From NCBI GenBank assembly GCA_964551295.1, contig CAZKDJ010000002.1, forward strand, positions 1,096 to 65,095: 64,000 nucleotides of DNA. The letters are read 5' to 3'. Made by a program: the position numbers and the translations under genes. Origin of the DNA: an uncultured Anaerolineales bacterium. GTDB lineage: Bacteria > Chloroflexota > Anaerolineae > B4-G1. Position 1 is the stretch's first letter. Every line of letters begins with the position of its first letter. Positions 16,673 through 53,698 of the stretch are shown here, piece by piece. The notes under the pieces were generated by a model. It did no database searches. It worked only from the letters and a program-made list of their open reading frames with translations, and was not told where the DNA came from.

Positions 16673-16690
16673 AGCGCGAATTTAATCTGA

Positions 16691-26555: not shown

Positions 26556-28240
26556 CGGAGAAGCGACGCGGGCGACGGTGGGATCTCCTGGCGCTGGGAG
26601 GATATGCGCTTGTGGCGTTGGCCTACGCTTGGCCACTGGTGCGCCAGTTCGGCACGGCGCTGGCGGGCGATGGCTACGACCGGTATGTCTTTCTGTGGAC
26701 CAACTGGTGGGCCACTCACGCTATCAGCCGGGGCAAGCCGCTCTACCAAACAGCGATGATCTTTTACCCTCAGGGAACCAACCTGCATTTTCTCAGCTTC
26801 TCCTGGCTGAACACGTTTGTGTGGTGGGTGCTGCGGCCCGTCGTCGGCAGCGTGGCGGCCTACAACTTTACCGTGTGGTGGAGTTGGCCACTGGCCGGGT
26901 TCGGGGCGTACTTGCTGGCGCGGAAGGTAACGGGCAACCGGTGGGCGGCCTTTGTCGCCGGTTTGATCTATGCCTTCTACCCCTATCACTTTGCCCAGCG
27001 CAACCATCTGAACCTGCTCAGCGTGCAATGGACGCCCTTTGCGCTCCTTTTCCTGATGCGGGCGACACGGCGCGGGCGGGTGGTCGATGGCCTCCTGGCC
27101 GGGTTTTTCTTTGCCTGCGCCGGTCTCTCCAGTTGGCACCAGTTGACGCTGGCCGGGCTGCTGGGCGGGCTGTGGCTGCTCTACGCTTGGCTGACGGAGC
27201 GGGGCGAGTGGCTGCGCGGGAACTGGCGCGCCCTGGCGGTGGTGGCGGTGACGGTGGCGGTGCTCGTCGGTCCGCTCCTCGCCCCCCTGGTCTGGGAACA
27301 GTTCGTGAGTCCAGAGGGGCAAGATCCTTACCTCGGTAAGGAGGGAGAGACGCAGACCGACCTGGTCGCCTACGTCCTGCCTAATCTGTACCATCCATTG
27401 TGGGGCCACGTCGCTGCCCCGGTCCATCAGCGTTTCCTGCGCAACAAGGATCATGTCGTCGCCCTGGGTTACGTGCCTCTGGCTCTGACGGGGTACGGCT
27501 TGCTGCGCTGGCGGGCTGTCAAGCAGGTGCGATTCTGGCTTCTGGCGCTGTTGACTTTCTTCATGTTGGCCATCGGGCCGTTCCCGCGCATCAACGGCGT
27601 CGCTTACCCTCGGGTGCCGCTGCCTTACCGCTTGGTCGGATGGACGTTTTCCGTGAGTTCCCTGCGCAACCCGGAGCGGTTCAATATCGCGGTGGGGTTG
27701 TGCCTGGCGCTGGTGGTGGGGGTTGCAGTGAGCGACCTGCTGCGCCGCCTGTCCGCTCGCCGGATGGCTGCCATCATCGCCATCGCTGTGGCGGCGCTGG
27801 TGCTTTTGGAGTACTGGTCTTGGCCCTTCCCCACGCGCCCACCCGATGTGCCCGAGTTCTACCACCAATTGGCCCGCGAACCCGGCGACTTTGTCATCGT
27901 CGATCTGCCGATCACCAACGATCTATCCAAGCGCTACATGTACTATCAGACCGTGCACGGCAAGGCGACCGTCACCGGGCACGTCTCTCGGCCGCCGGAG
28001 GGAGCGTACGACTTTATCGTGGGCAACGGCCTGTTGCGGGCGTTGTGGCAGGGCCGCCGGCCCGATCCAGCGGGTGACCCAGCGGCGGAGATGGCGGCGC
28101 TGGCCGATGCCGGCGTGCGCTACGTCGTCGTCCACAGGGAGCACCTGGACGAGGATGAATTGTCTGCCCTGAGTGCTTACCTGTCCATACCCCCCACTTT
28201 CGCCGACGACGAGGTGCTGGTCTATCGTACCGTGCCGTGA
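26552..28240 (+). CDS. Class-B GT-C-like membrane protein, module-less short form
   Basis: GTG 26552 overlaps TGA (GTGA). LAYAWPLVRQFGTALAGDGYDRYVFLWTNWW. Ends ...FADDEVLVYRTVP, directly where the paralogues continue into their modules. Confidence 0.78.
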   Translation: MTEKRRGRRWDLLALGGYALVALAYAWPLVRQFGTALAGDGYDRYVFLWTNWWATHAISRGKPLYQTAMIFYPQGTNLHFLSFSWLNTFVWWVLRPVVGSVAAYNFTVWWSWPLAGFGAYLLARKVTGNRWAAFVAGLIYAFYPYHFAQRNHLNLLSVQWTPFALLFLMRATRRGRVVDGLLAGFFFACAGLSSWHQLTLAGLLGGLWLLYAWLTERGEWLRGNWRALAVVAVTVAVLVGPLLAPLVWEQFVSPEGQDPYLGKEGETQTDLVAYVLPNLYHPLWGHVAAPVHQRFLRNKDHVVALGYVPLALTGYGLLRWRAVKQVRFWLLALLTFFMLAIGPFPRINGVAYPRVPLPYRLVGWTFSVSSLRNPERFNIAVGLCLALVVGVAVSDLLRRLSARRMAAIIAIAVAALVLLEYWSWPFPTRPPDVPEFYHQLAREPGDFVIVDLPITNDLSKRYMYYQTVHGKATVTGHVSRPPEGAYDFIVGNGLLRALWQGRRPDPAGDPAAEMAALADAGVRYVVVHREHLDEDELSALSAYLSIPPTFADDEVLVYRTVP

Positions 28241-28241
28241 G

Positions 28242-38900: not shown

Positions 38901-39218
38901 TACTGGCAGGGACAGCGCGAGATGGCGCAGAGCTACAAGGTGTTCGTGCACGTGTACGATGACGCGGGGAACATCGTGGCACAGCGGGACTGGCTGCCGG
39001 GGTTGGGTGTAAAGCCGACATCGGGGTGGGCAGCGGGCGAGGTGGTGGCGGATCGGCACATCGTGCCGGTGGGAGAGGACGTGGCGGCGGGTGAGTACCG
39101 GGTGGCGGTGGGGATGTACGACGAGGGGAGCGGAGATCGGTTAGCCGCGTATGGGCCGGATGGGGACCGCTTGGCTCAGGACCGGATCATCCTGGGCCGC
39201 GTGGAGGTCGGGCCCTGA
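35919..39218 (+). CDS. GT-C-like (GT39/ArnT-like) membrane protein, class A-long, with 3 C-terminal modules
   Basis: RVADEARWTCRVVGF...HPGVVTTW first loop, LDPFYLAMSRFLHLDA. Three modules (VLAWEAMEEMGKDYAVFLHLYD, LRVVWEALGKMAQSYRLVVDL, VTLYWQGQREMAQSYKVFVHVYD). Start is GTG 35919 or ATG 35937. Confidence 0.82.
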   Translation: MTADATMKRFSRLEIAIVALVLLASLAARLIGLDAFRVADEARWTCRVVGFRHALLRGDWANTFRVGHPGVVTTWLGAIFAPAESDGLRAMCRDSLDGRQLEKAGGSQAERHRLLGELNHLLLEARVGVALFSWVCIVGIYVLARLLWGSKVAVVGLALVALDPFYLAMSRFLHLDAVLTGAMTVSVLSLLVSLGRSRSSLWRLAFLALSGVLGGLAILQKSPAMFLAPFVALVEGWDALRGTARRERLLQAARGVAIWGLVAAAVYVALWPAAWVDPVGTMQGVLGQAIGYAEEGHSSGSYFFGRPVDDPGWLFYPVALAFRLSPLALVGLVAGVVWMVSSRNDAGRRFGMGVLLAYSLLFGIFMSLGAKKFDRYLLPVFPALDIVAGVGLLWAAEAVWQRLEGLKRSLPSYLAVTVVVLVVQIALVVLHYPYYLTYYNPLLGGIRQAERVLLMGWGEGYERAAAYLNAKPGVERLQVSEAVFPVFAPQFDGETRRLQRYCVWDNDYVIFYLSYVQRQRFDDLLAEYVVNPQVEPEYVVNLHGVDYLWIYRNDRHYVEPMAYIEARARPGEGECLLVNGDSLFAENYKGRLSVYAFQADWISEDESYAYWSAERVAGMLEDMSSECERVWYARYSEWEPGAYLDVLDMHGALLERASFPHMEVTLHRLVGAGVATRPLDVQFGGLRLTGYGATQPLPAWGRDGGVVLAWEAMEEMGKDYAVFLHLYDARGERVAQEDEPVLDRALRPTSQWQAGTSSVVLYHLPIGPGTPPGEYDLELGVYDQETGKRLPLEGPQGETAVRVKAGVGVAEGAPTVEELDVPYVMEREVVPELSLVGYGIDREAVLAGQTVTLRVVWEALGKMAQSYRLVVDLRGADGEVYGSGEYGLVNTAYATTEWREGEVLRGVYDVAVSEGAPTGEMALVVDLVGEEDERVLDEPVMVGVVWIQSTEPNFGKPQEMETASGVTLGDKVKLLGYDLAPGPARAGGNLYVTLYWQGQREMAQSYKVFVHVYDDAGNIVAQRDWLPGLGVKPTSGWAAGEVVADRHIVPVGEDVAAGEYRVAVGMYDEGSGDRLAAYGPDGDRLAQDRIILGRVEVGP

Positions 39219-41263
39219 TGTGTAGCGATAAAAACGCGCGCCTGTTCTGGTACGGCCTGGTGGTCGTATTCCTCCTGGCGCTGATCCTGCGCGTGATCTA
39301 TCCCGTCTCGCGGCCCCTGGAGTGGTACGAGCGCTCGGTGCGCTTCTGGGATGCGCTGCTGGCGGGGGACCCCGCCGGTACCTATCAGCGATACCATCCC
39401 GGCGTCACCACGATGTGGGTGGCGGGCCTGGGGCTGCGGGTTTACGCGGCGGCGCACGGTTTGTCGGGAGATGATCTATTGGACCCGCCTCAGTCGTCCG
39501 CGGACTATCGGCCTTACCCCATCGGGGCGGGCGTGGCGGCGCTGGGCGTGGCCATTGCCCTGTGCATCGGTCTGGCTTATGTGCTGTTGGTTCGGTTGTG
39601 GAATTGGCGGGTCGGCGTCGTCGGTGGATGCTTGCTGGCATTGGATCCTTTCTACCTGGAAGAGAGCAAGGTCCTTCACATAGACGCGATGCTGGCGACG
39701 TTGATGCTGGTGAGCGTGCTGTTCCTGCTCGACTACGTACAGCGGGAGCGCCGGGTGTCCCTCGTCCTCAGCGGGATTTTCGCCGGGCTGGCTTTCCTGA
39801 CCAAGAGCCCGGCCGGTGTCCTGATTCCTCTGTTGGCTCTGGCTGTGTCCTATCGCCATCTGGCGGACACTCGTATCTCTTGGCCGGGTAGAATCGGCGA
39901 GATCGCTCGTGATCTCGTGATTTGGGGGTCTACGGCGGCGTGTATATTCGTGCTGTTGTGGCCTGCCATGTGGGTCATGCCGGGGGAAGCGCTGTCCAAG
40001 TTGGTGCAGCGGGTCGAGTTTCACATGGAGACGGTGCACCGTAACCCCAACTTTTTCGCCGGGCAAGTGATCACCGACGACCCCGGGCCTCTCTTTTACC
40101 TGGCCACGCTCGGCTGGAAGACGACCGCGATCACGCTGCCGTCAGTTTTGCTGGCGGCTGCGCTCCTGATACGACGCTTGAGACGTTGGCGGGACAATGT
40201 ATCGGTGTGGGGGATGCTAGTGTATGCCTGCGGGTTTACGGCGGCGATGATGCTCGCGGCCAGAAAGGAGCTGCGCTACCTGATTCCTGTCTTTCCCGCC
40301 CTGGATGTGCTGGCGGCCTGGGGGCTGGTGCAAGTGGCGAGCGCGGTCGGGAAACTGGGGTGGCTTCGGAAGCGTGGGTGGATTCCAGCGGCGATCATCG
40401 TGGCCGCGCTAACCTTTCAGGCCGTCGCGGTTCTCAGGCTCCATCCCTACTATGGCACCCATCACAACCTGCTGTTGGGCGGCTCGCGAGTGGCGCAGCA
40501 CGTTCTTCCCTTGGGCGATCAAGGGGAGGGTGCGGATCTGGCCGCGCGCTTCCTTAACGGCTATCCGGGGGCGGAGCGCAGATTGGCCGGCGTGCACCGG
40601 CGGTTGGAGGAACTGTCGGAGCGCATCTTTGTCGGGCGCAGCGACGGCATAGAGCTGCCCGAGGCGGATTATTACGTCTTTACCATCAATTCTATCCAGC
40701 GTCGGAACCGCGTCGAGTACTGGGGCGAGGCCTGGGATGCCTGCCAGGAGAAGGAGCCCCTGTGGACGATCTCCTTCGATGGGGTGCCTTATGTGTGGGT
40801 CTACCCGGCGTACCAGACCGATCCGGAGGTGTTCGACGTTGACCACCGCCTGGACGTGCAACTGGGCGATCACGTGCGCCTGCTGGGTTACGACTTGGCT
40901 TCGGACGACTTCTCGGCGGGAGATACGCTGACGGCGACGCTCTTCTGGCAGTCGGATGGCCGAGTGACCGAGGACTATCACGTCTTTGTGCACCTGCAAG
41001 ACGCCGATGGGCAGATGGTGGCGCAGGACGACGGCGTGCCGATGCAGGGCGCGCGACCGACCTGGGACTGGCGGGATAGGGAGGTGTTGGAGGACGAGCA
41101 CAACCTCATTACCGACATAAGTTTGCCCGGCGGTGCGTACACGCTCTCTGTCGGAATGTACGATCATGCGACCGGCGTGCGGCTGTCGGCGATTGGGCCG
41201 GCTGGCGAGCGTTTTCCCGATGGCCGCATCGTGCTTCGGACTGTTCGCAAGACGTCGCCTTGA
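39218..41263 (+). CDS. GT-C-like membrane protein, class A-short, with 1 C-terminal module
   Basis: TGATG junction with the upstream gene. PVSRPLEWYERSVRFWDALLAGDPAGTYQRYHPGVTTMW. Module TATLFWQSDGRVTEDYHVFVHLQD. Confidence 0.82.
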   Translation: MCSDKNARLFWYGLVVVFLLALILRVIYPVSRPLEWYERSVRFWDALLAGDPAGTYQRYHPGVTTMWVAGLGLRVYAAAHGLSGDDLLDPPQSSADYRPYPIGAGVAALGVAIALCIGLAYVLLVRLWNWRVGVVGGCLLALDPFYLEESKVLHIDAMLATLMLVSVLFLLDYVQRERRVSLVLSGIFAGLAFLTKSPAGVLIPLLALAVSYRHLADTRISWPGRIGEIARDLVIWGSTAACIFVLLWPAMWVMPGEALSKLVQRVEFHMETVHRNPNFFAGQVITDDPGPLFYLATLGWKTTAITLPSVLLAAALLIRRLRRWRDNVSVWGMLVYACGFTAAMMLAARKELRYLIPVFPALDVLAAWGLVQVASAVGKLGWLRKRGWIPAAIIVAALTFQAVAVLRLHPYYGTHHNLLLGGSRVAQHVLPLGDQGEGADLAARFLNGYPGAERRLAGVHRRLEELSERIFVGRSDGIELPEADYYVFTINSIQRRNRVEYWGEAWDACQEKEPLWTISFDGVPYVWVYPAYQTDPEVFDVDHRLDVQLGDHVRLLGYDLASDDFSAGDTLTATLFWQSDGRVTEDYHVFVHLQDADGQMVAQDDGVPMQGARPTWDWRDREVLEDEHNLITDISLPGGAYTLSVGMYDHATGVRLSAIGPAGERFPDGRIVLRTVRKTSP

Positions 41264-41300
41264 GGCTATGATTGTGCGGAAAGCTAGTGGAGCATTCGGG

Positions 41301-42989
41301 ATGAAGCAATATGATTGGGCAGTCTTGGGACTGTATGGCCTGTTGACTTTGATATTAACCTCATCGTTGGCTTCGAACTTGAACACGGTGCTGGCTGGAC
41401 AGAGCAGCGACGTCTACATCAATCCCTGGGCCGACTGGTGGACGAAAAAAGCCCTGACGGAAGGCCTGGACTTTTACTACACCGACTATGTGTTCTACCC
41501 ACAGGGTACCAGCCTTGCTTTCCATAGCTTTACCCATATCAACACCTTCATCATATTGTTTTTGGCTCCGTTGGTGGGTTATTTCGCTGCTTACAACCTG
41601 ACCATATTGCTTGCATATGTATTGAGCGGTTTTAGTATGTACTTGCTCGTGACCTATCTCACGGGCTGCCGTTCTGCTGCCTTTGTCGCTGGCCTCGTTT
41701 TTGCCTTTTACCCCTATCACATCTTTGAGAGTGCCCACCCAGTTTTGGTGACCACTCAATGGATGCCCCTTTTTGCGCTGGCTCTTATGCGGTCGCTTCG
41801 CAGTACCGGTTCAAGTCGAGTCAAGCAGGTACTGCTGGCTGCCCTGTGGTTTCTGGTTACAGCGTTATCGAGTTGGCATCTCATGATCATGCTGTCTATG
41901 TGGACATTTCTCTATCTGCTCTATAAAATCATCTTTGAGCGCTCCGAGTGGGCGCCGCGGGCGTTTCGTGCCCTGGCTTTGCTCGCCGTCGTCGTTGGTC
42001 TGGTGCTGATCCCCTTCTTGTGGCCGATGATGCGTGAACTGATGACTTCGGATGCGGGTTATGTGACCAAGAGTAGCGGCCATGGATGTGATTTGCTCTC
42101 TTTCATTGTTCCCAATCAGCATAATCCATTGCTTGGTTCTCTGGTGTACACGTTAGGCCTTGAGGACAAAAGCGGGTTTACCAGAAAGCACTCGGCTTAC
42201 CTGAGTTATGTTGCCCTAGGGCTTGCTGTTATTGGAGTTGTCCAGGCTCGTCGAAAGCCACGTTTCTGGCTGTTGGCGGGAGTGATATTTTTCGTGCTCT
42301 CGCTAGGCTCGCAGATCAATCTTAATGAGGTTCCCCTGCACTCCTTCTCGTTGCCTTGGGCGGTTCCCATTATCGGCATCTTGCGGCACCCTCGCCGTCT
42401 CCACGTACTCGTTTTCTTTTGTTTCGCTGTTTTGGTCGGCTACGGTGGTCGTTGGCTGCATAACAGGATTGTATTGCGAAACCGGGCGCTGGCTCACATA
42501 GCCCTGGCTTCTGTTGCAGCGTTTATCCTGTTGGAATATCTGATCTGCCCTTTTCCCACTACCCCGGTGACTCTCTCTTCTTTCTGGCACCAACTGGCTC
42601 AGGAAGAGGGAGATTTTGCCGTGGCTGATTTTCCCAAGGATAATAAGAGTGAAAAGTATGCCATGTTTTGTCAGATATTTCACGGAAAAAAGATCGTCAG
42701 TGGCCGTGTATCGCGTACTCCCCAGGATGCCGAGGCTTTTTTGGAGGCCAATCCCTTGTTGGAGCGGCTGAACGAAGGGACCGCGCCCGATCCAGATTGG
42801 GATATGGAAGTCGAGTTCGCCCGGTTGGCTGCTCAAGATATTCGATACATTGTCGTGCACAAACATCTTCTCAAATCCGACGAGGTGGAGAATTGGCGGG
42901 GATGGCTTGGCGACTCTCATCTTTTCTACGAGGACGAGAGGCTAATGGTCTACTGCACCGAATCTATATCGGAAAAAGGAACACCGTAA
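41301..42989 (+). CDS. Class-B GT-C-like membrane protein (lower-GC subclade), module-less short form
   Basis: MKQYDWAVLGLYGLL...LAGQSSDVYINPWADWW. Ends ...FYEDERLMVYCTESISEKGTP with no module. The ORF-track start 41133 overlaps the upstream gene and lacks support. Confidence 0.78.
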   Translation: MKQYDWAVLGLYGLLTLILTSSLASNLNTVLAGQSSDVYINPWADWWTKKALTEGLDFYYTDYVFYPQGTSLAFHSFTHINTFIILFLAPLVGYFAAYNLTILLAYVLSGFSMYLLVTYLTGCRSAAFVAGLVFAFYPYHIFESAHPVLVTTQWMPLFALALMRSLRSTGSSRVKQVLLAALWFLVTALSSWHLMIMLSMWTFLYLLYKIIFERSEWAPRAFRALALLAVVVGLVLIPFLWPMMRELMTSDAGYVTKSSGHGCDLLSFIVPNQHNPLLGSLVYTLGLEDKSGFTRKHSAYLSYVALGLAVIGVVQARRKPRFWLLAGVIFFVLSLGSQINLNEVPLHSFSLPWAVPIIGILRHPRRLHVLVFFCFAVLVGYGGRWLHNRIVLRNRALAHIALASVAAFILLEYLICPFPTTPVTLSSFWHQLAQEEGDFAVADFPKDNKSEKYAMFCQIFHGKKIVSGRVSRTPQDAEAFLEANPLLERLNEGTAPDPDWDMEVEFARLAAQDIRYIVVHKHLLKSDEVENWRGWLGDSHLFYEDERLMVYCTESISEKGTP

Positions 42990-43023
42990 AAGATCATTTT
43001 AGCGAGGAAGGATATATCGAAAA

Positions 43024-45123
43024 GTGGATTCCCATTTGTCTGCGACCAGGGTGGCTAGAAGCCAAAGGTTTTTTTGGGCGGGCTTGGTCTTTGTTTTTCT
43101 TTTGGCGCTCCTGCTACGCTTAATCTATCCGGTAACGCGGCCTATGCTGTGGTACAAACGCTCTGTGCGCTTTTGGGATGCTTTGCAGGAGGGAGACCTG
43201 AGCGGCACCTACCAGCGATATCATCCGGGTGTTAGTGTGATGTGGATCGCAGGTCTGGGATTGCGCATATATGCAGTCGCGCACGGCTGGTCGGGTGATG
43301 AACTCTTGAATCCACCGCCGGGTCCTCTGGGCCGCCGGGATTATCCAGATGAGGCAGGCGTGGCTGCGTTGAGTATTGTCATCGCCGCCTGTGTTGGATT
43401 GGCCTACGTCTTGTTGACCCGCCTGACAGATTGGCCGGTGGCGTTTAGCTCCGGATGTCTACTGGCATTGGATCCGTTTTACATATACTTGAGCAAGATG
43501 ATTCATTTGGATGCTATATTGGCGAGTTTTATGCTGATCAGCGTGCTGTTTCTTATATGTTATTTGCAACACAAGATGAGGTCGGACTTGATTCTTGGCG
43601 GGGCATTTGCCGGGTTGGCCTTTTTGACCAAGAGCCCCTCCGGTTTTCTATTGCCTTACACCCTAATGGTGATTGGGTATTTCTCTCTCTCTCATTCGTT
43701 GACCTTACGGGACAGCTCAGTCAAGAGTTCAGAGAAAGGACATCGGTGTGTCCAGTTACTATGGGGCGTAGTTCGCACGATGGGCGGGTGGGGGATTGTC
43801 GCTGGCCTCGTTTTCTTTCTTGTATGGCCTGCGGCGTGGTTTGCCCCCTTGGACACGCTCTCCAAAGTGGTTCAAGAGGCACTTTTCCGCGCCGAGGTGC
43901 CTCATCACGATGTGTTCTTTGCCGGTCGAGTGTTTGATGACCCGGGTTGGCTCTTTTATGGAGCGACCATAGCGTGGAAGACGACCGTCATTACACTACC
44001 GGCAATCTGCATAGCCCTGGTCTTTTTGGTTCTGCAGTGGAGAGGGGGGAGGGACGTCCGGCATATGTGGTGGCTGTTGATTTATGCCGGGGGATTTCTT
44101 TTGATGATGACTCTAGCGGCCAAGAAAGGAGAACGCTATGTCTTGCCCGCTTTTCTACCATTGGATATACTGGCCGCCTGGGGATTGAACCGGATGGCGA
44201 GGACCGTTGGACGATGCAATCGACTGCGAAACCAGAGCTGGGTTCCGGCGGCGATGATTGCGACGGCGTTTGTTGTCCAATCTGGCGTGGTGCTTGAGCA
44301 TTACCCTTACTACAGTACGCACCATAATTCCCTGTTGGGTGGTTCGCGAGTGGCGCAGAGGGTTCTCTCTCTGGGCGATCAGGGAGAGGGTTTGGATTTA
44401 GCCGCGCGTTTCCTCAACAGCTATCCGGGGGCGGAGCGGAGGACAGTCGGTTTGCAGAAAAGATTCATCGATTCATTTGAGCGCGACTTTGTCGGGCGTA
44501 CTCGGCGCATCAACGAGCCTGGCGTAGATTACAGGGTCTTTGCCGTCAACGTCAACCAACGCGGACTGAACGCTGAGGAATGGGAGCGGATGTGGGAAGC
44601 TTGCCAGCAAGAGGGATCGCTGTGGTCGGTAGCCTTTGATAGCGTGCCTTATGTCTGGATTTGTCCGGCTTACCCGCACGATCCGGCGGTGTTCACCATC
44701 GACCATCGCTTGGATGTACAGTTAGGCGATCACATCGGTCTGCTGGGATATCGACTGAACTCCACTCAGCTTTCGGCGCGAGATGCGCTGACCGTGACGC
44801 TGTTTTGGCAGTCGGACGGGCGATTGGTCGAGGACTGTCACGTCTTTGTACATCTTGTAGCCCCGGATGGACGGATAGCCGCTCAGCACGATGGCGTTCC
44901 GGTGGAGGGCGAGCGGCCTACCTGGGATTGGCGAGACGGGGAGGTTTTCCAAGATGAGCACATACTGAGCATTGACCCGAGTCTGCCCGGCGGCGTTTAC
45001 ACGCTTTCTACTGGGATGTATGATCATTTGACCGGAGTTCGGCTGCCGGCGGTCAGTCCATTCGGCGATCGCCAGCCCGAGGATCGCATCGTGCTTCAGG
45101 GAGTTTGGGTGATAGCGCCATGA
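43024..45123 (+). CDS. GT-C-like membrane protein, class A-short, with 1 C-terminal module; close paralogue of 39218..41263
   Basis: PVTRPMLWYKRSVRFWDALQEGDLSGTYQRYHPGVSVMW. Module TVTLFWQSDGRLVEDCHVFVHLVAPDG. The exact start is uncertain (GTG 43024). Confidence 0.8.
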   Translation: MDSHLSATRVARSQRFFWAGLVFVFLLALLLRLIYPVTRPMLWYKRSVRFWDALQEGDLSGTYQRYHPGVSVMWIAGLGLRIYAVAHGWSGDELLNPPPGPLGRRDYPDEAGVAALSIVIAACVGLAYVLLTRLTDWPVAFSSGCLLALDPFYIYLSKMIHLDAILASFMLISVLFLICYLQHKMRSDLILGGAFAGLAFLTKSPSGFLLPYTLMVIGYFSLSHSLTLRDSSVKSSEKGHRCVQLLWGVVRTMGGWGIVAGLVFFLVWPAAWFAPLDTLSKVVQEALFRAEVPHHDVFFAGRVFDDPGWLFYGATIAWKTTVITLPAICIALVFLVLQWRGGRDVRHMWWLLIYAGGFLLMMTLAAKKGERYVLPAFLPLDILAAWGLNRMARTVGRCNRLRNQSWVPAAMIATAFVVQSGVVLEHYPYYSTHHNSLLGGSRVAQRVLSLGDQGEGLDLAARFLNSYPGAERRTVGLQKRFIDSFERDFVGRTRRINEPGVDYRVFAVNVNQRGLNAEEWERMWEACQQEGSLWSVAFDSVPYVWICPAYPHDPAVFTIDHRLDVQLGDHIGLLGYRLNSTQLSARDALTVTLFWQSDGRLVEDCHVFVHLVAPDGRIAAQHDGVPVEGERPTWDWRDGEVFQDEHILSIDPSLPGGVYTLSTGMYDHLTGVRLPAVSPFGDRQPEDRIVLQGVWVIAP

Positions 45124-45187
45124 CCGGTTGAGGAGACGACCGGTGACGGAGGGCATAGGGCGTAATCGGGGAATGAGAGGAGACAGC

Positions 45188-47683
45188 ATGAAACGATACA
45201 ATGTCGCAGTCTTTGGTCTTTACGGGTTAGTGACCATCGTGCTGGCATTACCTTTGGTCTTGAATCTGAACGCCATGCTGATTGGGAAAAGCAGTGACGT
45301 CTACATCAATCCCTGGGCCGACTGGTGGACGAAAAAGGCGTTTACAGAAGGATTGGATTTTTATCGTACTGACTATTTGTTTTATCCGCCGGGTGCGAGC
45401 CTCGTTTTTCACAGCTTTAGCCACACGAACGCCTTCGTCTCGCTACTTCTAACTCCGTTGATTGGGCATCTCGCTGCCTTCAATGTCGCTATCCTGCTTA
45501 TCTATGTCTTGAGCGGCTTTAACATGTACCTGCTGGTCAGCTATCTCACGGACTGCCGCCCGGCGGCCTTTGTCGCCGGTCTCATCTTTGCTTTCTTTCC
45601 CTACCACGTCTTTGAGAGCGCTCACCCTAACTTGACGTCAACCCATTGGATTCCCCTCTTTGTGCTGGCGCTTATACGTGCGCTCCGCGAAACCGGCGTG
45701 AGTCGGATCAAGCAGACGTTGCTGGCTGTCCTGTGGTTCCTGTTGACGGCGCTGTCGAGTTGGCTCGTTATGATCATGCTGGGCATATGGACGGCCCTCT
45801 ACCTGCTCTATGGGTTGTTTTTCGAGCGCTCCGAGTGGGCGCCGCAGGCGTTTCACTCCCTGGTTTTGTTGGCCATTGTGATCAGTTTGATCGTGACTCC
45901 GCTGTTGTGGCCTATCATTCGTGCGCTGGTGACGTCCAATACTGGATATGTCATTAGCTCCAGCGGCACGTCGAACGATTTGCTCTCTTTCGTCACCCCC
46001 AATCGGGGGCATCCGGTGGTTGGTTCCTTCGTGGAGATTCTGGATTTCGACGACGAACTGAGATTGACCAGAAAAGACACGGGATATCTTGGCTTCGTCG
46101 CTTTGGGACTCGCCATTGCTGGAGCGATCACCGCCGGTCGGCGGGCCCGTTTCTGGTGGGTGGGAGGACTGGTGCTCCTTGTCCTTACACTAGGTCCGCA
46201 AATCAGCTTCAATGGGGTTCCCCTGCACGCGTTCAAGTTGCCCTGGGCGATTCCCATCATCGGTGTCTTGAAGAATCCCCTCCGTCTCAATCTGGTTCTC
46301 TTCATTTGCCTGGCCGTCCTGTCTGGCTACGGCAGCCTGTGGTTGTACCAGAGGATTGCCGCGTTGCAGAGCCGAACGCTGGCCCTCGTGGCTCTGACCC
46401 TGGTTGCGGTGCTTGTGCTTCTAGAGTATTTGATCTGGCCGTTTCCTACCACCTCGTTGTCCCTCTCTCCTTTTTGGGACCAACTGGCTCGTGAAGAGGG
46501 AAACTTTGCCGTGGCTAACTATCCTCGGGGCAATCGACCCGAAAAGTACTACATGTTCTGTCAGATTTCTCATAATAAAAAGATTGTTGGCGGTCACGTG
46601 TCGCGTTCTGTCGCCGACGCTGATAATTTGAGTATCCCTTTGCTGGAGCGCTTGGGCGAAAATCCGGCCCCCAATCCAGCCTGGGCCATTGGCGAGGAAT
46701 TCGCCCAGTTGGCCGGTCAAGGCATTCGACACATCATCTTGCACAAGCGTTTCCTAGAGTCTGACGAGGTGGATGATTGGCGGGCGTGGTTTCCTTTCCA
46801 ACCATACTACGAGGACGAGCATCTGCTCGTCTTTCGCACTGCGCCTCGCTATGGGGAGGATTTCCAATTCGCGACCGAGTTAGGGGATGGCATCGGGGTA
46901 TTGGACGCCGGCGTCTCGACGCACAGCGTGGTGCAGGGCGAGTCGTTGGACGTAACGGTTGTGTGGGGCTCCCGGAAAGCGCCGTGCCAGGACTGGACGG
47001 CTTTTCTGAAGCTGGTGAGCCCGACCGGTCAGGAGGTGCAGCGAGCGTACTTTGATCTCTTTCCCGATTGGCCAACCTCAGAGTGGGGCGATAGCGCTGT
47101 GCTGCGTGGGCAGTGGACGCTGCAGGTGGATCCGTATATTGCGCAGGGTGGCACATACGCTATGGCCCTGGGCCTGGTGGATTTGGAGGCGGGCGAGCAG
47201 TTAGACACGTCGATCGAGTTGGGTCAGTTGGACGTACAGGTTGTCGAGCGGACGTTTGAGATACCTCGGGTAGAGATAGAAAGCGATGCCGTTTTTGGCA
47301 GTCAGTTGCGACTGCTGGGGTACGATACACGTCAGGCGGACGGTCAGATGAAGATAACGCTCCACTGGCAAGCGCTGCAGCGGACGGACACAGCGTACCA
47401 GTTCTTTGTACACATGATCGATCCAACGAGTGAAAAACTGGTCACTCAGGCCGACGTGATGCCCTATCATTGGACCTATCCGACCTTCTGGTGGGAGGCC
47501 GGCGAGATCGTCAGCGACGAGATCGCGCTTTCGCTGGCGGATGTGCCTCAAGGGAACTATCGCCTGGAGATAGGCGTCTATGATCCCGACTCTGGGGAGC
47601 GGTTGCTCCTCGTCTCAGGGCGTGACCATCAACAACCAGCGGATCGGCTCGTTCTGCCTGAGATGGTCGAGATTGTTGGATGA
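45188..47683 (+). CDS. Class-B GT-C-like membrane protein, mosaic: membrane part closest to 41301..42989, 2 C-terminal modules closest to 13959..16478
   Basis: MKRYNVAVFGLYGLV...LIGKSSDVYINPWADWW. C-terminus PRYGEDFQFATELGDGIGV...ITLHWQALQRTDTAYQFFVHMID...YPTFWWEAGE. GAGAGGA SD precedes ATG 45188. Confidence 0.82.
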   Translation: MKRYNVAVFGLYGLVTIVLALPLVLNLNAMLIGKSSDVYINPWADWWTKKAFTEGLDFYRTDYLFYPPGASLVFHSFSHTNAFVSLLLTPLIGHLAAFNVAILLIYVLSGFNMYLLVSYLTDCRPAAFVAGLIFAFFPYHVFESAHPNLTSTHWIPLFVLALIRALRETGVSRIKQTLLAVLWFLLTALSSWLVMIMLGIWTALYLLYGLFFERSEWAPQAFHSLVLLAIVISLIVTPLLWPIIRALVTSNTGYVISSSGTSNDLLSFVTPNRGHPVVGSFVEILDFDDELRLTRKDTGYLGFVALGLAIAGAITAGRRARFWWVGGLVLLVLTLGPQISFNGVPLHAFKLPWAIPIIGVLKNPLRLNLVLFICLAVLSGYGSLWLYQRIAALQSRTLALVALTLVAVLVLLEYLIWPFPTTSLSLSPFWDQLAREEGNFAVANYPRGNRPEKYYMFCQISHNKKIVGGHVSRSVADADNLSIPLLERLGENPAPNPAWAIGEEFAQLAGQGIRHIILHKRFLESDEVDDWRAWFPFQPYYEDEHLLVFRTAPRYGEDFQFATELGDGIGVLDAGVSTHSVVQGESLDVTVVWGSRKAPCQDWTAFLKLVSPTGQEVQRAYFDLFPDWPTSEWGDSAVLRGQWTLQVDPYIAQGGTYAMALGLVDLEAGEQLDTSIELGQLDVQVVERTFEIPRVEIESDAVFGSQLRLLGYDTRQADGQMKITLHWQALQRTDTAYQFFVHMIDPTSEKLVTQADVMPYHWTYPTFWWEAGEIVSDEIALSLADVPQGNYRLEIGVYDPDSGERLLLVSGRDHQQPADRLVLPEMVEIVG

Positions 47684-47725
47684 GCCGATTCCCCAATCCG
47701 TGATTTGGTGTATTGGATGAATTGC

Positions 47726-47753
47726 TTGTCAGCCAGCAGGGGGAGGCTATAAT
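47726..47753 (+). promoter_or_regulatory. Array promoter P4: TTGTCA-16-TATAAT
   Basis: TTGTCA at 47726-47731, 16-nt spacer, TATAAT at 47748-47753. A leader of about 100 nt follows, containing two hairpins. Confidence 0.55.
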
Positions 47754-47858
47754 GCCATGGTCTGCCACCATGGCCCGTGAGACCCGTTTTCTGCCAGGGG
47801 AGCACTTGGACTTCTCCCCATGCGTTGTTGGGGTGTAGAAATAAAAGGTGCAAGATAG

Positions 47859-50429
47859 TTGCCAGTAGACGCGCTGAAACAGATTAGATCGAAAGGCTTG
47901 GTGGGAGTGATCCTCTTGGCCCTCCTGAGCAATGTGGTCATCCTCTGGGGGCCTTCCCGCCTGCTGATCTTTGCGGCTGGGCTTGTTCTCGTCTGTCTGT
48001 TGCCTGGCTATCTGCTGGCCCGCGTTATCTTGCCCGGAGTCGGCTCGCTGAAGCGGTCGGAGTGGGCGGTGCTGACCATCGGACTGGGATATGCCGCCCT
48101 GATTCTGGGGACCTTGGTGCTCCACTACCTGCCTGGCCCGTTGATCCGCCCGTCTATCCTGGCACTGTACGATGGGCTGATCCTTCTGCTCGTGGTCGTT
48201 CTCTTCTGGCGTCGCCGGGATGACGCAACTCCTTCGGTCGGTCGCTCTTCGACGTACCACGATCTGCTCCTCTTGGCCGTGCTGCTGGTGGCTGCCTTTT
48301 TGCGATTCGGCAATCTCGGCTACTCCGAGTTCCAGGGGGACGAGTCGCGTGCTGCGCTGATGGCCGCTGCAGTCGTTCGGGGCCAGGAAGAGATTCTGTT
48401 CCTGCACAAGAAGGGCCCGGTCGAGATTTTGATCCCGGCCGTGTTCTATGCGCTGGATGGCACGCTCACCGAGCTTACGGCGCGCCTCCCTTTCGCCCTG
48501 GCAAACGTGACCGCTATCGCGACCATGTATCTCCTGGTCCGGCGGCTGTTCCCCCGCCAGGCGCTTGCCGCCCCGATAGCCGCCGGCCTGTTGGCCGTCG
48601 ACGGCTACCTGACGGCCTTTGGACGACTCCTGCAGTACCAAAGCGTGGTGTTCCTCATGATTGCGCTGGCGGCGTGGAGCGCGTGCGTCTGGCGTCGCCG
48701 GAAGCATCCGGCACTGATCCTGCTCGCGGCTTTGTTCCTGGCCGTGGGCGCGCTGGCCCATTACGAGGCTCTCCTGGCGGCCCCCTTCGTCGCCTGGATG
48801 TTTCTGGATCGCGGGCGGCGTGAGGGGTGGTCCGTCCGCCAGTGGCTCCGGCGCGCCTGGCGGCCCGTCGCCGTCGCAGTCCTCATCCTGGGCATGTTCT
48901 ACGTGCCCTTTGTCCGCCACCCCCACTTTGCCGAGACCGCCGAGTACATCACCGAGCGGCGCATCGGGGGCGGGTTGCTGTACAACCAACTGCACGAGTT
49001 CTTTTTCCGGGCCACCTTTTACAACTCGGTGTATTACATCCTATTTCTGCTGTTGGGGATGCTGTTGTTCGTGATGGACCAGCTTCGGATGGCGCTGCGC
49101 GCCTTTGGTTTGGCTGTGGGGATCGTGCTGCTTGCTGCTATGGCGGCCGTGGCAGCCTTTCCCCAAGCGGTCGTCGTCGGTGAACTGAACTTGGCCGTGG
49201 TGCCCTTTGCAGCGACGCTGCTTCTATTGATTGCCCTGCCGCGCGTCGAGACCAAGGTCCGGGCCACGCTCCTGTGGTTCAGTGTGCCGTGCTTGATCGC
49301 GCTCTTCCTGATGCAGAAACCCAAGACCCACGTGTATACGATGTTCCCGGCGGGGGCCGCTTTGATCGGCGTGACCATCAGCCGCATCGTCACCGGCCTC
49401 GATCGGCGCGTCGAGCGGGTGCTGAGGTCAGCGCGGGTCCGCCGGTTGGGACTGCTTCTGATCGGCGCGGCTGTGCTGGCGGTGTTTGGCTATTACACCT
49501 ATATCGTGTTCGTGCGGCACGAGCCGGACTTTCGACGTGGCTATCCCGAGACGCGGCCGGCCTTTTACCCCACGTTCTACGGCGACGAGTCCCCCAAGGG
49601 GGGTGGCTTTGGGTTCCCCCACCGTGGCGGCTGGAAGGCCGTCGGCGCGCTCTACGCCCAGGGCGTGCTGCAGGGCAGCTACAGCGCCAACGAGGAGACG
49701 ATCACCACGTCCTGGTACGTGCGCGGGGTGCCGTGGTGCCGCGAAGAGGCGGACTATTACTTCATCACCAGCGTCGTCCACGATCGCGACAAGATCCCCG
49801 AGGACCGCATTCTCCGGGAGAAACACCTGTTAGGCCGCGTCTGGTCTGAGGGCCAACGGGTGCTCGAGATCTATAGCGATCAGCCCGTGGATGAGTCGGC
49901 CGACTATGACCTGGCCGAGCTGGAGGGTGTGTTTGACGACGCGGCCCGACCCGACGTGTGGCTGTGGGCGCTGGAGCCTACGGCCCCTCGGCGCCGCGTG
50001 GACGCGCGCGTGGGGAAGTGGGCTGTCTTGGTGGGCGCTGACTTGCCCGATCAGGTGGTCGCCGGTGAGACGATGGTGCTGGCGCTGCACTGGCAGCCCA
50101 TCACTGCCTTCGATAGCGACTATATCGTCTTTGCGCACGTCGAGTTCGAAGGTCAGGCGCTGTGGGGCCAGCACGATGGGACTCCGGTGTGCGGCTCTAT
50201 GCCGACGACCGATTGGGAGCCCGGCGAGATGGTCATCGATGGCCGCTTCCTGCACATAGACCCGACCACGCCGCCGGGGGAGTATCCCGTGATCGTAGGT
50301 ATGTACGATTACCGGACGGGGGAGCGGCTGCCGGTGTCGGGCCGCGACGCCAACGTGTGGGGTAACGCGATACGTGTGGGAACAGTGCAGGTCTTGCCTT
50401 CAGCCGATGTTCAGGAGGGCACACCATGA
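47859..50429 (+). CDS. GT39/ArnT-like GT-C membrane glycosyltransferase homologue, class C, with 1 C-terminal module
   Basis: Extra N-terminal TM bundle, then LRFGNLGYSEFQGDESRAALMA...FLHKKGP (PMT_2/ArnT-type first loop). Module LALHWQPITAFDSDYIVFAHVEF...PTTDWEPGE. TTG start is uncertain. Confidence 0.8.
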   Translation: MPVDALKQIRSKGLVGVILLALLSNVVILWGPSRLLIFAAGLVLVCLLPGYLLARVILPGVGSLKRSEWAVLTIGLGYAALILGTLVLHYLPGPLIRPSILALYDGLILLLVVVLFWRRRDDATPSVGRSSTYHDLLLLAVLLVAAFLRFGNLGYSEFQGDESRAALMAAAVVRGQEEILFLHKKGPVEILIPAVFYALDGTLTELTARLPFALANVTAIATMYLLVRRLFPRQALAAPIAAGLLAVDGYLTAFGRLLQYQSVVFLMIALAAWSACVWRRRKHPALILLAALFLAVGALAHYEALLAAPFVAWMFLDRGRREGWSVRQWLRRAWRPVAVAVLILGMFYVPFVRHPHFAETAEYITERRIGGGLLYNQLHEFFFRATFYNSVYYILFLLLGMLLFVMDQLRMALRAFGLAVGIVLLAAMAAVAAFPQAVVVGELNLAVVPFAATLLLLIALPRVETKVRATLLWFSVPCLIALFLMQKPKTHVYTMFPAGAALIGVTISRIVTGLDRRVERVLRSARVRRLGLLLIGAAVLAVFGYYTYIVFVRHEPDFRRGYPETRPAFYPTFYGDESPKGGGFGFPHRGGWKAVGALYAQGVLQGSYSANEETITTSWYVRGVPWCREEADYYFITSVVHDRDKIPEDRILREKHLLGRVWSEGQRVLEIYSDQPVDESADYDLAELEGVFDDAARPDVWLWALEPTAPRRRVDARVGKWAVLVGADLPDQVVAGETMVLALHWQPITAFDSDYIVFAHVEFEGQALWGQHDGTPVCGSMPTTDWEPGEMVIDGRFLHIDPTTPPGEYPVIVGMYDYRTGERLPVSGRDANVWGNAIRVGTVQVLPSADVQEGTP

Positions 50430-53400
50430 GCCAAGCGCTCCGCCTGGAGGTCGCAGCCGTCCTCCTGATATTGGCCGCGAGCTTGGTCCTGCGCCTGCTG
50501 GATCTGGATGCCTTTGTCGCCTCCGATGAACTCCGTTGGACCTGCCGCTCGATCGCGTTTCGCCAGGCCCTGCGGCAAAGGGATTGGCCCGGCACTTTTC
50601 GTGTCGGTCATCCCGGTGTGGTCACGACCTGGCTGGGTGCCCTGTTCATCCCCCGCAATGATGTGCGTGCCTTGGAAACCTGCCGCGCCACGGGCGACGC
50701 CAAGAACCCCGAGACGGCCGGCGATACCCCCGCCGAGCAGACGGAGCGCCTGCGCGAGTTGGGCCGGCTGCTCTTTGCCGGCCGCGTCGGCATAGCCTTG
50801 GCGACGTGGCTGTGCATCGGCGTGCTCTATCTGCTGACGCGGTTGATATGGGGTCCAAAGGTCGCCCTGGTGGGCCTGATCCTGGTGGCGTTGAATCCCT
50901 TTTACCTGGCCCACTCGCGTTTCATTCACCTGGACGCTGTGCTGGCTGGCCTGATGGTTGTTTCCTTGCTCAACTTTCTGGTCTCGCGCCAGTCCGCGAG
51001 GCCGGGCCGGTGGCGCCTGGCTTTTGTGGCGCTCTCCGGCGGCGTGGGCGGGCTGGCGTGCCTGCAAAAGTCGCCGGCCCTGTTCCTGGCTCTCTTCGTG
51101 GGACTCGTTCTGGTCGCTGATGTCCTGCGAAACGGCGTCAGCCGCCGCAGGATCCTGGAGGCCTCCCGCGACCTGGCGCTGTGGGGCCTGGCGGCCGGGG
51201 TCGTCTACGTGGCCCTGTGGCCGGCCATGTGGATTGATCCGCTGGGCACGGTCGGGCGGGTGTTGGATACCGCCATCGGCTACGCCGAGGAGGGCCACGA
51301 GCCGGGTAACTTCTTTTTGGGCCGTCCCGTTCACGACCCCGGTTGGGCGTTTTATCCGACGGCGGTGCTGTTTCGCACGACGCCCTTGGCCCTCCTGGGC
51401 CTGATCGGCGGGCTGATTGGGATGGCGAGGGTTGGGAAGGGAGAGCGTCGATTGGGCCTGGCGCTCCTCTTGCTCTACAGCCTGCTGTTCGGCATCTTTA
51501 TGGGCTTGGGAAAAAAGATGTTCGATCGCTATCTGCTGCCCATCTTTCCGCCCCTGGAGATCGTGGCCGCTGCCGGGCTTGTGTGGATGGGCGAGGCCCT
51601 GTGGGCTCGTCTGCCGGGCAGGCTGCGCCCTCTGCTATTGACCGGACTGCCCGTCTACCTGATCGTTTTGATCGTCCGCCTCGTCCTGGTGTTGCCCCAC
51701 CATCCCCATTACCTGACGTATTACAACCCCTTGCTGGGCGGAGCGCCCCGGGCGCGCCAGGTGTTGCTGATGGGTTGGGGAGAGGGGTACGGAGAGGCGG
51801 CGTCCTATCTGAACGCCCAACCCGGCGCGCAGGATTTGCAGGCCACGGTGCCCGGCTTTCCCGTGTTTGCCGCCCTGTTCCGTGGCGAGACGCGCGACAT
51901 GAGGTGGTACAGCGTCTGGGAAAGCGACTATGTCCTGGCCTACGTCTCTCAGGTGCAGCGGGAACGGGACAAGGTCTCGACCACTGAATACTACGACGAT
52001 CCGCAAGTGCAACCAGAGCACGTCGTCACCTTGCACGGCGTCGATTACGTCTGGATCTATCGCAACGAGCACCATCTCAAGCCGCTCAGGTATCTGGAGG
52101 AACACGGCCGACCTGCTCAGGGGGAGTGCCTGTTGGTCAACGGTGGCTCGCTCATCGCCGAGAACTACGGGGGTGGGCTTCCGGTGTATGCGTTCCGCGC
52201 CCAGTGGGTTCCATCCCAAAAGGCGTACGTCTACTGGAGCGCCGAGCAGGTGGCGGCGCTGGTCGACGATATGAGCGGCGACTGCCGGCGGGTGTGGTAC
52301 GTCCGTTATCCCGAACACGAGGAGGAGGCGTATCTCGACGTGCTGCGAACGCGCGCCGTGCAGTTGGAGCGAGCGACCTTTCCGCACGTAGAGATCGGGC
52401 TCTATCAGTTTGTCGAGCAATTGGTTGAGCCTCGGCAATTCGACCTGCAGTTTGAGTCTCTACGCCTGCGCAGTTATGCCCTCACTAACCCGCCGCCGGC
52501 GTGGGGGCGGGACGGCGGCGTGATCCTGGAGTGGGAGGCCGTGCAGCCGCTGCAACGCGATTACAGCCTCTTTCTCCATCTCTACGATGGCCACGGCCAG
52601 CGCATCGCCCAGACCGATAGCCTGTTGATCGACCGGCGCCTGCGCCCGACCTCCCAGTGGGAGCCGGGGACACCGAATCGGGTCCTGTATCACGTGTCCA
52701 TCCCGCCGGGGATACCGCCCGGCAGGTACGAGCTGGAGTTGGGGGTCTATCTGCTCGAGACGGGTGAGCGGCTGGATTTGAGCGACACGGGCGAAAGCTC
52801 GTTCCGGCTGGCACTGGAGGTGGGTGTCCCGGACGTGCAGCCGGATGCATCGGACCTGGCGATTCCGCATCCGGCGGCGCGCGACGTTCTCCCCGAGTTG
52901 AGGTTGCTGGGCTACGATCTGGAGCGGGACGCGGTGTTGGCGGGAGAGGGGGTCACGCTGCGCCTCTACTGGCAGGCATTGGCCGAGATGGCGCAGGCGT
53001 ACCGGCTCCAACTGGCGTTGCAAGGCGCCGACGGGCAGGTCCACTGGCAGGCCGAGTCCGACCTGGTGCACACGGATCACCCGACGACGGAATGGCAGCC
53101 GGGTGAGCTGCTTCACGATCTCTACCCGCTCCCCACCGACGCGATAACGGCCACGGGCGAGGTGACCATCGCGCTCAACCTGTTGGATGCGCAGGGTGGC
53201 CCTCTGCTGGATCGTCCTGTCGAACTGGCGCAGTTGTGGGTTCAATCGCTGGAACCCAGTTTCGACGTGCCGCCGGAGATCGATCTCACGCATCAAGTCA
53301 ACTTTGGCGATAGCATCATTTTCCTGGGCTATGAATTGGACTCGGAATCGGTCAGGCCGGGGGAGAGCTTTAGCGTCAAGCTGTACTGGCAGGCCCGCCG

Positions 53401-53698
53401 GGAGATGGAGGAGGGCTACAAGGTGTTCGTGCACCTGTACGACGAGGAGGGGAACATCCTGGCACAGCGGGACCGCATGCCCGGGCTGGGCGCGCGGCCG
53501 ACCAGCGGGTGGCAGGCGGGCGAGGTAGTCGCCGATCGCCTCACCGTGCCGGTCGACTCCGAGGTGCCGGTGGGCAGATACCGCCTGGCCGTGGGGCTGT
53601 ACGACGGGGGAACGGGAGATCGTTTGCCGGTCTATGGCCCGGATGGAGAGCAATTGCAGGAGGGCCGGGTCTTTATTGGCCATGTGGGGGTGGAATGA
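50426..53698 (+). CDS. GT-C-like membrane protein, class A-long, with 3 C-terminal modules; paralogue of 35919..39218
   Basis: ATGA overlap with the upstream gene. VASDELRWTCRSIAF...HPGVVTTW. Modules contain ILEWEAVQPLQRDYSLFLHLYD, LRLYWQALAEMAQAYRLQLAL and VKLYWQARREMEEGYKVFVHLYD. Confidence 0.82.
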   Translation: MSQALRLEVAAVLLILAASLVLRLLDLDAFVASDELRWTCRSIAFRQALRQRDWPGTFRVGHPGVVTTWLGALFIPRNDVRALETCRATGDAKNPETAGDTPAEQTERLRELGRLLFAGRVGIALATWLCIGVLYLLTRLIWGPKVALVGLILVALNPFYLAHSRFIHLDAVLAGLMVVSLLNFLVSRQSARPGRWRLAFVALSGGVGGLACLQKSPALFLALFVGLVLVADVLRNGVSRRRILEASRDLALWGLAAGVVYVALWPAMWIDPLGTVGRVLDTAIGYAEEGHEPGNFFLGRPVHDPGWAFYPTAVLFRTTPLALLGLIGGLIGMARVGKGERRLGLALLLLYSLLFGIFMGLGKKMFDRYLLPIFPPLEIVAAAGLVWMGEALWARLPGRLRPLLLTGLPVYLIVLIVRLVLVLPHHPHYLTYYNPLLGGAPRARQVLLMGWGEGYGEAASYLNAQPGAQDLQATVPGFPVFAALFRGETRDMRWYSVWESDYVLAYVSQVQRERDKVSTTEYYDDPQVQPEHVVTLHGVDYVWIYRNEHHLKPLRYLEEHGRPAQGECLLVNGGSLIAENYGGGLPVYAFRAQWVPSQKAYVYWSAEQVAALVDDMSGDCRRVWYVRYPEHEEEAYLDVLRTRAVQLERATFPHVEIGLYQFVEQLVEPRQFDLQFESLRLRSYALTNPPPAWGRDGGVILEWEAVQPLQRDYSLFLHLYDGHGQRIAQTDSLLIDRRLRPTSQWEPGTPNRVLYHVSIPPGIPPGRYELELGVYLLETGERLDLSDTGESSFRLALEVGVPDVQPDASDLAIPHPAARDVLPELRLLGYDLERDAVLAGEGVTLRLYWQALAEMAQAYRLQLALQGADGQVHWQAESDLVHTDHPTTEWQPGELLHDLYPLPTDAITATGEVTIALNLLDAQGGPLLDRPVELAQLWVQSLEPSFDVPPEIDLTHQVNFGDSIIFLGYELDSESVRPGESFSVKLYWQARREMEEGYKVFVHLYDEEGNILAQRDRMPGLGARPTSGWQAGEVVADRLTVPVDSEVPVGRYRLAVGLYDGGTGDRLPVYGPDGEQLQEGRVFIGHVGVE

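Follow-up and report, generated by a model that had tools for sequence, protein, structure and literature searches.

The stretch of DNA analysed here, referred to as the window, comprises 64,000 nucleotides (nt) and corresponds to positions 1096-65095 of contig C2 in a metagenome bin of 4.5 Mb (368 contigs, 60% GC). Its source is an uncultured Anaerolineae bacterium, and its DNA is present in salt-marsh metagenomes. Between 11.8 and 63.5 kb, nearly all genes lie on the + strand and encode polytopic membrane proteins of 560-1100 amino acids (aa), which together form an array of ~50 kb with ~20 paralogous genes. Ten of these genes belong to one family, whose homologues are annotated as proteins of Anaerolineae or Chloroflexi metagenome-assembled genomes: A (starting at 45188), B (41301), C (13959), D (18779), E (21286), F (23781), G (26462), H (28173), I (30785) and J (33268). 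The remaining array genes match the Pfam models PMT_2, PMT or GT87, and further members of the A-J family are found on contigs C8 (gene K), C1, C111 and C21 of the same bin. Our subject is gene A, which an original prediction made from the sequence alone had described as a mosaic of the membrane domain of B and the C-terminal module pair of C. All genes and gene parts of the window discussed below lie on the + strand.

Gene A (45188-47683) is an intact open reading frame (ORF) of 831 aa that encodes a membrane domain of the glycosyltransferase C (GT-C) type, a periplasmic alpha/beta domain and two beta-sandwich modules. The part of B lineage extends over 45188-46790 and contains a GT-C core of the type with 13 transmembrane (TM) helices (~residues 1-415) together with most of the periplasmic alpha/beta domain (~residues 420-535). 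It is followed by a crossover interval at 46775-46822, which encodes a conserved W-R-x-W...P-x-Y-E-D-E motif in the last helix and strand of the periplasmic domain. Module 1 (46862-47245, residues 559-686) and module 2 (47270-47656, residues 695-823) are of the C-type lineage. Both were matched by a hidden Markov model (HMM) of the modules, module 2 at 1.9e-67, and module 1 is a beta-sandwich in structural models. Gene B (41301-42989, 562 aa) is the nearest relative of A's N-terminal part. It is an intact ORF that ends in ...FYEDERLMVYCTESISEKGTP*, 12 residues past the YEDE motif, with the next gene beginning 34 nt later, and it has no modules, as noted in the original prediction. Gene C (13959-16478, 839 aa), likewise intact, represents the donor lineage of A's module pair, and its part homologous to A lies at 15594-16475. 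The coordinates and descriptions given for these three genes in the original prediction all hold. Across the array, an HMM of module 2 detected modules in 18 of the 20 proteins, 30 copies altogether; G and K, like B, end 12 residues past the YEDE motif and carry no modules.

An AlphaFold2 model of A (mean predicted local distance difference test score 89.6) placed a helical membrane core at residues 1 to ~415, an alpha/beta domain at ~420-550 and beta-sandwiches at 563-690 and 697-829. For the core, Foldseek returned AglB/STT3, DPY19 and AftA at probability 1.0, E-values of 5e-9 to 7e-5 and template modelling (TM) scores of 0.33-0.47 on the target. On the strength of these models, A is predicted to be a GT-C-fold glycosyltransferase carrying two Ig-like beta-sandwiches. 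The predicted fold of the core matches those of the oligosaccharyltransferases STT3/AglB/PglB, the C-mannosyltransferase DPY19, mycobacterial AftA and ArnT/PMT-type enzymes. As in GT-C enzymes with extra-membrane C-terminal domains, A has an invariant acidic residue in the first loop after TM helix 1 and a soluble domain after the last TM helix, and its array neighbours match PMT_2, PMT and GT87. It differs from these enzymes in its tail, a family-specific pair of beta-sandwiches that has no Pfam model. The acidic residue, D37, is invariant in 45 homologues, where it forms part of the sequence D-x-x-I-N-P-W-x-x-W-W, and it probably has a catalytic role. Further invariant residues include W43 and W47 in the same loop and W531 and D543 at the seam, and every family-invariant residue is retained in A. 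Judging from GT-C topology, the modules would lie outside the membrane. Their best structural matches (E ~1e-7) were tandem FnIII/Ig-like pairs, such as RbmA of Vibrio cholerae and the barrels at the C-terminus of transglutaminases. At 10-15% sequence identity and a TM score of only ~0.3 this is a generic fold resemblance, and the array modules differ further in being attached to membrane enzymes and in having a conserved signature of their own (LLGYD, LHWQA, FFVHL, Q-D-P, YPT-W-GE, G-Y-L-G-Y).

Searches of Pfam and NCBIfam gave no match for A, B, C or the module pair alone, the sole weak Pfam match of A being PTPS_related (E 0.19), and no match to DUF6311 (PF19830) was obtained at E<=0.01 by local hmmscan. 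Relatives of A carry only precomputed DUF6311 (PF19830) or PTPS_related matches, that to PF19830 being present in many close relatives. By its sequence, A is thus best regarded as a relative of DUF6311-annotated proteins, not as a demonstrated member of DUF6311. No description of the family or of the array was found in the searchable literature on DUF6311, on GT-C paralogue arrays of Chloroflexi/Anaerolineae or on Anaerolineae GT39.

The partner to which A is most similar changes abruptly within the gene. From residue 1 to ~530, A is identical to B at 61% of amino acids and 68% of nucleotides, a range that the original prediction had put by eye at 65-70%, correctly for the DNA and slightly too high for the protein. 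In 40-aa windows over residues 1-520, identity ranges from 42 to 80% with B and from 15 to 52% with C; the overall value of 34% for A and C in this part agrees with the ~35% predicted for their membrane domains. From residue 521 to the end, the windows against C rise to 55-79%. Over the part from residue ~540 to the end, A and C are 64-66% identical in amino acids and 71% in nucleotides, versus 38-45% aa for other module-bearing paralogues, so that A does track C from ~46790 onward as had been stated. The part homologous in A and C also appears in a survey of repeats in the array, as repeat families D1 and D6, with 73-76% nt identity. Windowed nt identity between A and C leaps from 41-57% to 80% at 46799.

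Three approaches locate this switch. Phylogenetically informative sites place the breakpoint between 46816 and 46821, with 491 B-type against 166 C-type sites to its left and 2 against 16 to its right, and the maximum chi-squared statistic of 36.0 was attained in 0 of 10000 permutations. A site-likelihood scan of the two competing topologies gave a cumulative difference that climbs to +210 at residues 524-543 and then drops by 43 (peak 524-549). In the codon alignment, A is B-like through S-D-E-V-D-D-W-R-A-W and C-like from L-L-V-F-R-T on, with sequence common to all three genes in between (TGG CGG ... TGG ... TAC GAG GAC GAG), which sets the crossover interval at 46775-46822.

Trees built separately from the two parts of the proteins conflict, and the conflict is strongly supported. 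The N-part tree groups A with B (support 97/93), then with K (100/100) and then with E (98/94), and C groups with I (93/98); in the C-part tree, A groups with C (100/99) and H with I (99/98). Approximately unbiased (AU) tests rejected the grouping of A with C in the N-part (p 2e-38) and of A with E in the C-part (p 0.003). Gene A is a chimera of paralogues, with a supported breakpoint and a different nearest relative on either side of it. The original reading of an identity switch inside one ORF as the mark of recombination or domain shuffling is thus borne out by the breakpoint tests and the conflict between the trees.

If the switch were instead the product of unequal rates or convergence, with the modules of A and C conserved or convergent and their membrane domains diverging fast, then no recombination would be needed. 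Module 2 is indeed the most conserved part of all paralogues, which are 55-72% identical to each other in the last windows. However, module 1 is 57-79% identical between A and C and only ~20-45% identical between A and other paralogues, congruent topologies are rejected by the AU tests, and third-position and synonymous sites change partner at the seam as well. We therefore regard an origin without recombination as extremely improbable.

The chimera could in principle also have been created by the assembler, joining two paralogues or strains where a motif is conserved. The genome does come from a metagenome bin in many fragments, the seam does lie inside a conserved motif, and unitigs at k=31 break at a 41-nt repeat that is identical in A and B. 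Against this, the same chimera is found on independent contigs of other samples (L001, L002 and L013), three independent assemblies contain it, contigs of four salt-marsh runs span 46236-47100 with zero mismatches, and other contigs span the boundary between A and the gene upstream of it (44800-45325). An assembly artefact has next to no chance of being the explanation.

The original prediction had also implied that the transfer of the module pair was recent, and had offered gene conversion as one possible cause; this part was not supported. In support, it had listed four long nucleotide runs shared by A and C. All four exist, each occurring once per gene, at 47353/16163, 47400/16210, 47447/16257 and 47469/16279, and all lie in module 2. 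The longest is 20 nt, and codon-position-preserving shuffles at 71% identity gave a mean longest run of 17 nt and a 95th percentile of 23 nt. Identical runs of 14-20 nt are what chance produces at this identity, and we rejected them as a sign of recent conversion. Synonymous divergence (dS) between the modules of A and C is 1.05, compared with 1.33 between the N-parts of A and B, so that fusion and duplication alike are old.

The chimera is also shared with other organisms. A database search gave two full-length orthologues of A, P0002 (72% identical) and P0003 (70%), along with module-less orthologues of B (P0008, P0010 and P0015, 77-86%) and orthologues of C (P0009, P0018, P0023 and P0024). 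The orthologues of A were taken from metagenome contigs. P0002 is located on the 49-kb contig L001, and another A orthologue is located on the 35-kb contig L013, both being 71-72% identical to A. Both contigs keep the window's gene order over 35919-53634 (L013 up to its contig end), including two tandem gene pairs of which A and B are each the second member. The breakpoint in P0002 falls at residues 529-537, matching that of A, and the modules of the L001 and L013 orthologues are 81-82% identical to A's, i.e. nearer to them than C's are. The fact that gene order and chimera are shared indicates that both the duplication of the gene pair and the chimera predate the split of the three organisms. 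The ratio of nonsynonymous to synonymous divergence (dN/dS) relative to the L001 orthologue is 0.14-0.17 in both parts of A, which shows that the chimera is under purifying selection. In the same genus and family, the species representatives of GTDB yielded no A orthologue above 58% identity, the relatives there being B-like, one-module or C-like. The one-module form is a large subgroup of the A/B N-domain clade (P0027-P0063, ~711 aa; loci G001-G004 and G007), and it is this form that occurs in the same-genus species representatives instead of an A orthologue.

Recent or ongoing conversion, by which the modules of C or of a near-identical copy would be copied into A and both homogenised, would fit the sharp 5' boundary of the tract, and a real short conversion-like tract does exist elsewhere in A, where 41 nt are identical to B and a residue varies between Ile and His in concert within genomes. 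It does not fit the dS of 1.05 and 71% nt identity of the modules, the longest run at shuffle expectation, the orthologous chimeras whose modules are closer to A's than C's are, or the array itself, within which no repeats above ~80% identity were found. We consider it very unlikely for the module pair.

The likely direction of the transfer follows from how the clades are nested. The N-domain tree has the A-clade (99/97) and the module-less B-clade (100/99) as sisters, joined at a node with 100/97 support, and modules are also lacking in P0012 and P0061, the two outgroups that follow. The tree of the modules places the A-clade inside the C-type module clade, beside P0009, with support of 99-100. 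This module clade largely coincides with the C-type N-domain superclade (22 versus 18 rows), the A-clade being a small nested branch in it, and other two-module proteins with A/B-type N-domains (P0004-7, P0011 and P0013) have modules of an unrelated type. The nestedness in both trees indicates that a module-less B-like gene gained a C-type module pair. The most parsimonious account of these sequences would therefore be a gain by a module-less gene and not an exchange between two full-length genes. As to the donor, for which the original prediction had pointed to gene C, the C-type lineage is supported; today's gene C cannot be demonstrated as the source, because A's modules group with those of P0009 and not with those of C's direct orthologues.

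If the common ancestor of A and B had instead possessed modules, which B, K, P0012 and others then lost, the C-type genes would have received theirs from the A lineage. Module loss clearly occurs in the family, where forms with no, one and two modules are interspersed, and the trees have no independent outgroup root. This reversed history would nevertheless have to accommodate three module-less groups as successive sisters of the A-clade, proteins in the same N-clade with two modules that are only 35-43% identical to A's, and the position of the A-clade as a small branch inside a module clade that otherwise largely matches the C-type N-domains. We judge it to be quite unlikely.

The neighbourhood of A suggests how the recipient arose. 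Gene B and the PMT_2-type GT-C gene upstream of it, Y1 (39218-41263), form unit 1 (39218-42989) of a tandem two-gene duplication. In unit 2, A is directly preceded by Y2 (43024-45123), which also matches Pfam PMT_2 and is ~56-60% identical in amino acids to Y1-type proteins (the Y1 orthologues in L001 and L013). A blastn comparison aligned the units colinearly over 2.5 kb, with 68.6% nt identity, and their homology stops at 46819. We propose that a two-gene unit, consisting of a PMT_2-type GT-C gene and a module-less DUF6311-type GT-C gene like B, was duplicated in tandem, and that the second module-less copy then recombined with a C-type paralogue. The crossover would have taken place inside the W-R-x-W...Y-E-D-E motif (46775-46822), at the end of the periplasmic alpha/beta domain, and would have supplied its final few codons together with the two Ig-like beta-sandwich modules. 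Purifying selection would have kept the chimera, which would have passed to at least three related lineages, in one of which the N-domain cassette of A (~45200-46735) would later have been replaced by a divergent allele. The event itself was presumably a homology-guided, non-reciprocal recombination. A simple unequal crossover between C and a B-like copy was considered and set aside, since the genes after A are unlike those after C and extra deletions would be needed. With considerable confidence, then, we interpret A as an old, fixed chimera in a tandem GT-C glycosyltransferase array that was made by duplication followed by domain acquisition at a recurrent seam.

Several points weigh against parts of this interpretation. 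The 3' end of the transferred segment could not be located, because A and C have no detectable similarity in their last ~30 codons or in the 3' flanks beyond, so conversion-like copying, unequal crossover followed by deletions and transfer from another genome are all possible routes. The direction rests on parsimony and on nestedness in trees that are unrooted or midpoint-rooted. Values of dS near or above 1 are near saturation, and the order of duplication and fusion cannot be set from them. Finally, with A's modules grouping with those of P0009, the donor may not have been the array's own C.

A later event is recorded in the N-domain of A when the three arrays are compared. Between the window and L013, amino-acid identity is 82-87% in neighbouring genes and only 65% in A's N-part. 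Between L001 and L013 it is 87% in the N-part, and for the modules it is ~81% in all three pairs. The cassette segments compared were 45200-46735 in the window, L013:13899-15450 and L001:10001-11550. At the nucleotide level, identity between the window and L013 is 64-74% in this cassette versus ~86% on both sides of it, and L001 and L013 are 84-91% identical there. Three-taxon site patterns group the window with L013 over 39218-44770 and L013 with L001 over ~45200-46735, and after ~46735 no pattern is dominant. For the window and L001, A's N-part has a dS of 1.3-1.5, compared with 0.60 for the modules and 0.57-0.62 for the genes on either side. These comparisons indicate that in one lineage a divergent allele replaced the N-domain cassette, from the start codon up to a point just short of the seam, the history of the cassette differing between related genomes from that of its flanks. 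Faster evolution as the cause of the divergent N-part in the window is disfavoured, because dS is doubled as well and root-to-tip lengths are similar on both sides. The right boundary of the cassette is spanned by contigs of 4 independent salt-marsh runs without a mismatch and the left boundary by other contigs, which indicates that the replacement is not an artefact of strain mixing. Separately, in the Y1-B-Y2 block (39218-45000), L001 is far more divergent from the window and L013 (57-83% nt) than it is in the genes on either side, and this divergent segment indicates that the array is mosaic between lineages. Base composition varies along the array, with a GC content of 0.51-0.55 at 42001-46000 (B, Y2 and A's N-part) versus 0.62-0.67 in the rest of the array and 0.60 in the genome; it is 0.589 in the modules of A and also in those of C.

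Inside the N-domain of A, the 41-nt tract mentioned above (45296-45336 in A, 41409-41449 in B) is perfectly identical in the two genes and encodes DVYINPWADWWTKK, the catalytic-loop motif with the invariant D37, W43 and W47. A run of this length was obtained in 0 of 5000 shuffles, the two genes being 68% identical overall. Its variable residue is Ile in both A and B here and His in both genes of L013, and the unitigs of 4 runs collapse the tract at double depth. These sequence patterns suggest short-tract conversion between the tandem paralogues A and B, and the tract is the only trace of conversion in the strict sense. It resembles the concerted evolution of tandem paralogues by short-tract conversion in that the shared states are genome-specific, and differs from it in extent, being 41 nt only; the 870-nt module transfer behaves otherwise.

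The seam crossed in A has been used repeatedly. For the 46 two-module proteins, the N-part alignment rejected the C-part tree with a log-likelihood difference of 3209 (AU p 4e-63), and the C-part alignment rejected the N-part tree with a difference of 1143 (AU p 2e-85). At least eight well-supported conflicts are apparent: the A-clade; I with H; P0005, P0006 and P0011 with J-type modules; L_C1 with P0076; P0020; P0009/P0035; P0025, P0026 and P0028; and P0058. The breakpoints form two clusters, at A-equivalent residues ~425-475 and 510-570, corresponding to the two domain borders. The contrast within the pair P0009 and P0035, which are 89% identical in the TM part and 92% in the periplasmic part and only 46% in module 1 and 63% in module 2, indicates that some of the swaps are fairly recent. 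A second mosaic lies in the window itself, namely gene I (30785-33271), whose N-part belongs with the C superclade and whose modules belong with those of its upstream neighbour H (28173-30788). Both sliding identity and a site-likelihood scan show its switch at ~32429, equivalent to residues 547-557 of A and thus at the same seam. On a tree of 43 proteins, at least 10 changes in module number (0, 1 or 2) are counted, and the AU test rejected a single origin of the two-module state (p 6e-12). These trees and alignments show many exchanges, gains and losses of module pairs, and in some cases of the entire periplasmic part, across the family. The notion of the array as a shuffling pool of membrane domains and modules, also part of the original prediction, is therefore supported on an evolutionary time scale.

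We looked for signs of programmed diversification, such as a shufflon, invertible cassettes or a diversity-generating retroelement. All genes are co-directional, there were no near-identical repeats, and the only inverted repeat, at 16565-16678, is a palindrome of a ~24 G run and a ~19 C run with flanking inverted repeats in the spacer just downstream of C; an exhaustive search for recombinases was not made.

Mosaic genes and cassette exchange are known in O-antigen and capsule loci, and module swapping is known in phage receptor-binding proteins. The array is like the O-antigen and capsule loci in being a co-directional locus of glycan enzymes in which segments have different histories between related strains, and it shares with both systems the placement of recombination boundaries at gene and domain borders. 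It differs from them in that domains of paralogous GT-C enzymes are exchanged here, within an array of ~20 paralogues. Since chimeric paralogues and mosaic glycan loci are already well known, the case is sound and conceptually ordinary, and would come as a moderate surprise to a specialist. What had been an impression by eye is now a well-dated and well-bounded case in which domains were re-assorted within a strongly expanded, uncharacterised family of membrane glycosyltransferases.

The recurrent seam delimits functional units, with the GT-C core and periplasmic domain on one side and the module pair on the other, and it predicts a module function that is separable from the rest of the enzyme. 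The modules may contribute to the recognition of acceptors or targets, in which case swapping would re-pair catalysis with recognition, and the natural chimeras offer material with which to test this. The ~50-kb array is recombination-prone and fast-evolving between related lineages, as would be expected of a locus for cell-surface diversity in abundant uncultured Anaerolineae. It is conceivable, although we put this forward only tentatively and think it has less than an even chance of being right, that the GT-C arrays of salt-marsh Anaerolineae are combinatorial loci of surface-glycan diversification. Catalytic domains and recognition modules would then be exchanged as cassettes between paralogues at two fixed seams (TM core/periplasmic domain and periplasmic domain/module 1), with alleles that differ by lineage and are kept by diversifying selection, for example by phage or grazers. 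If true, such arrays would constitute a diversification locus functionally analogous to O-antigen and capsule loci and to the swapping of modules between phage receptor-binding proteins, but its building blocks would be a family of enzymes with modules that has not been described so far.

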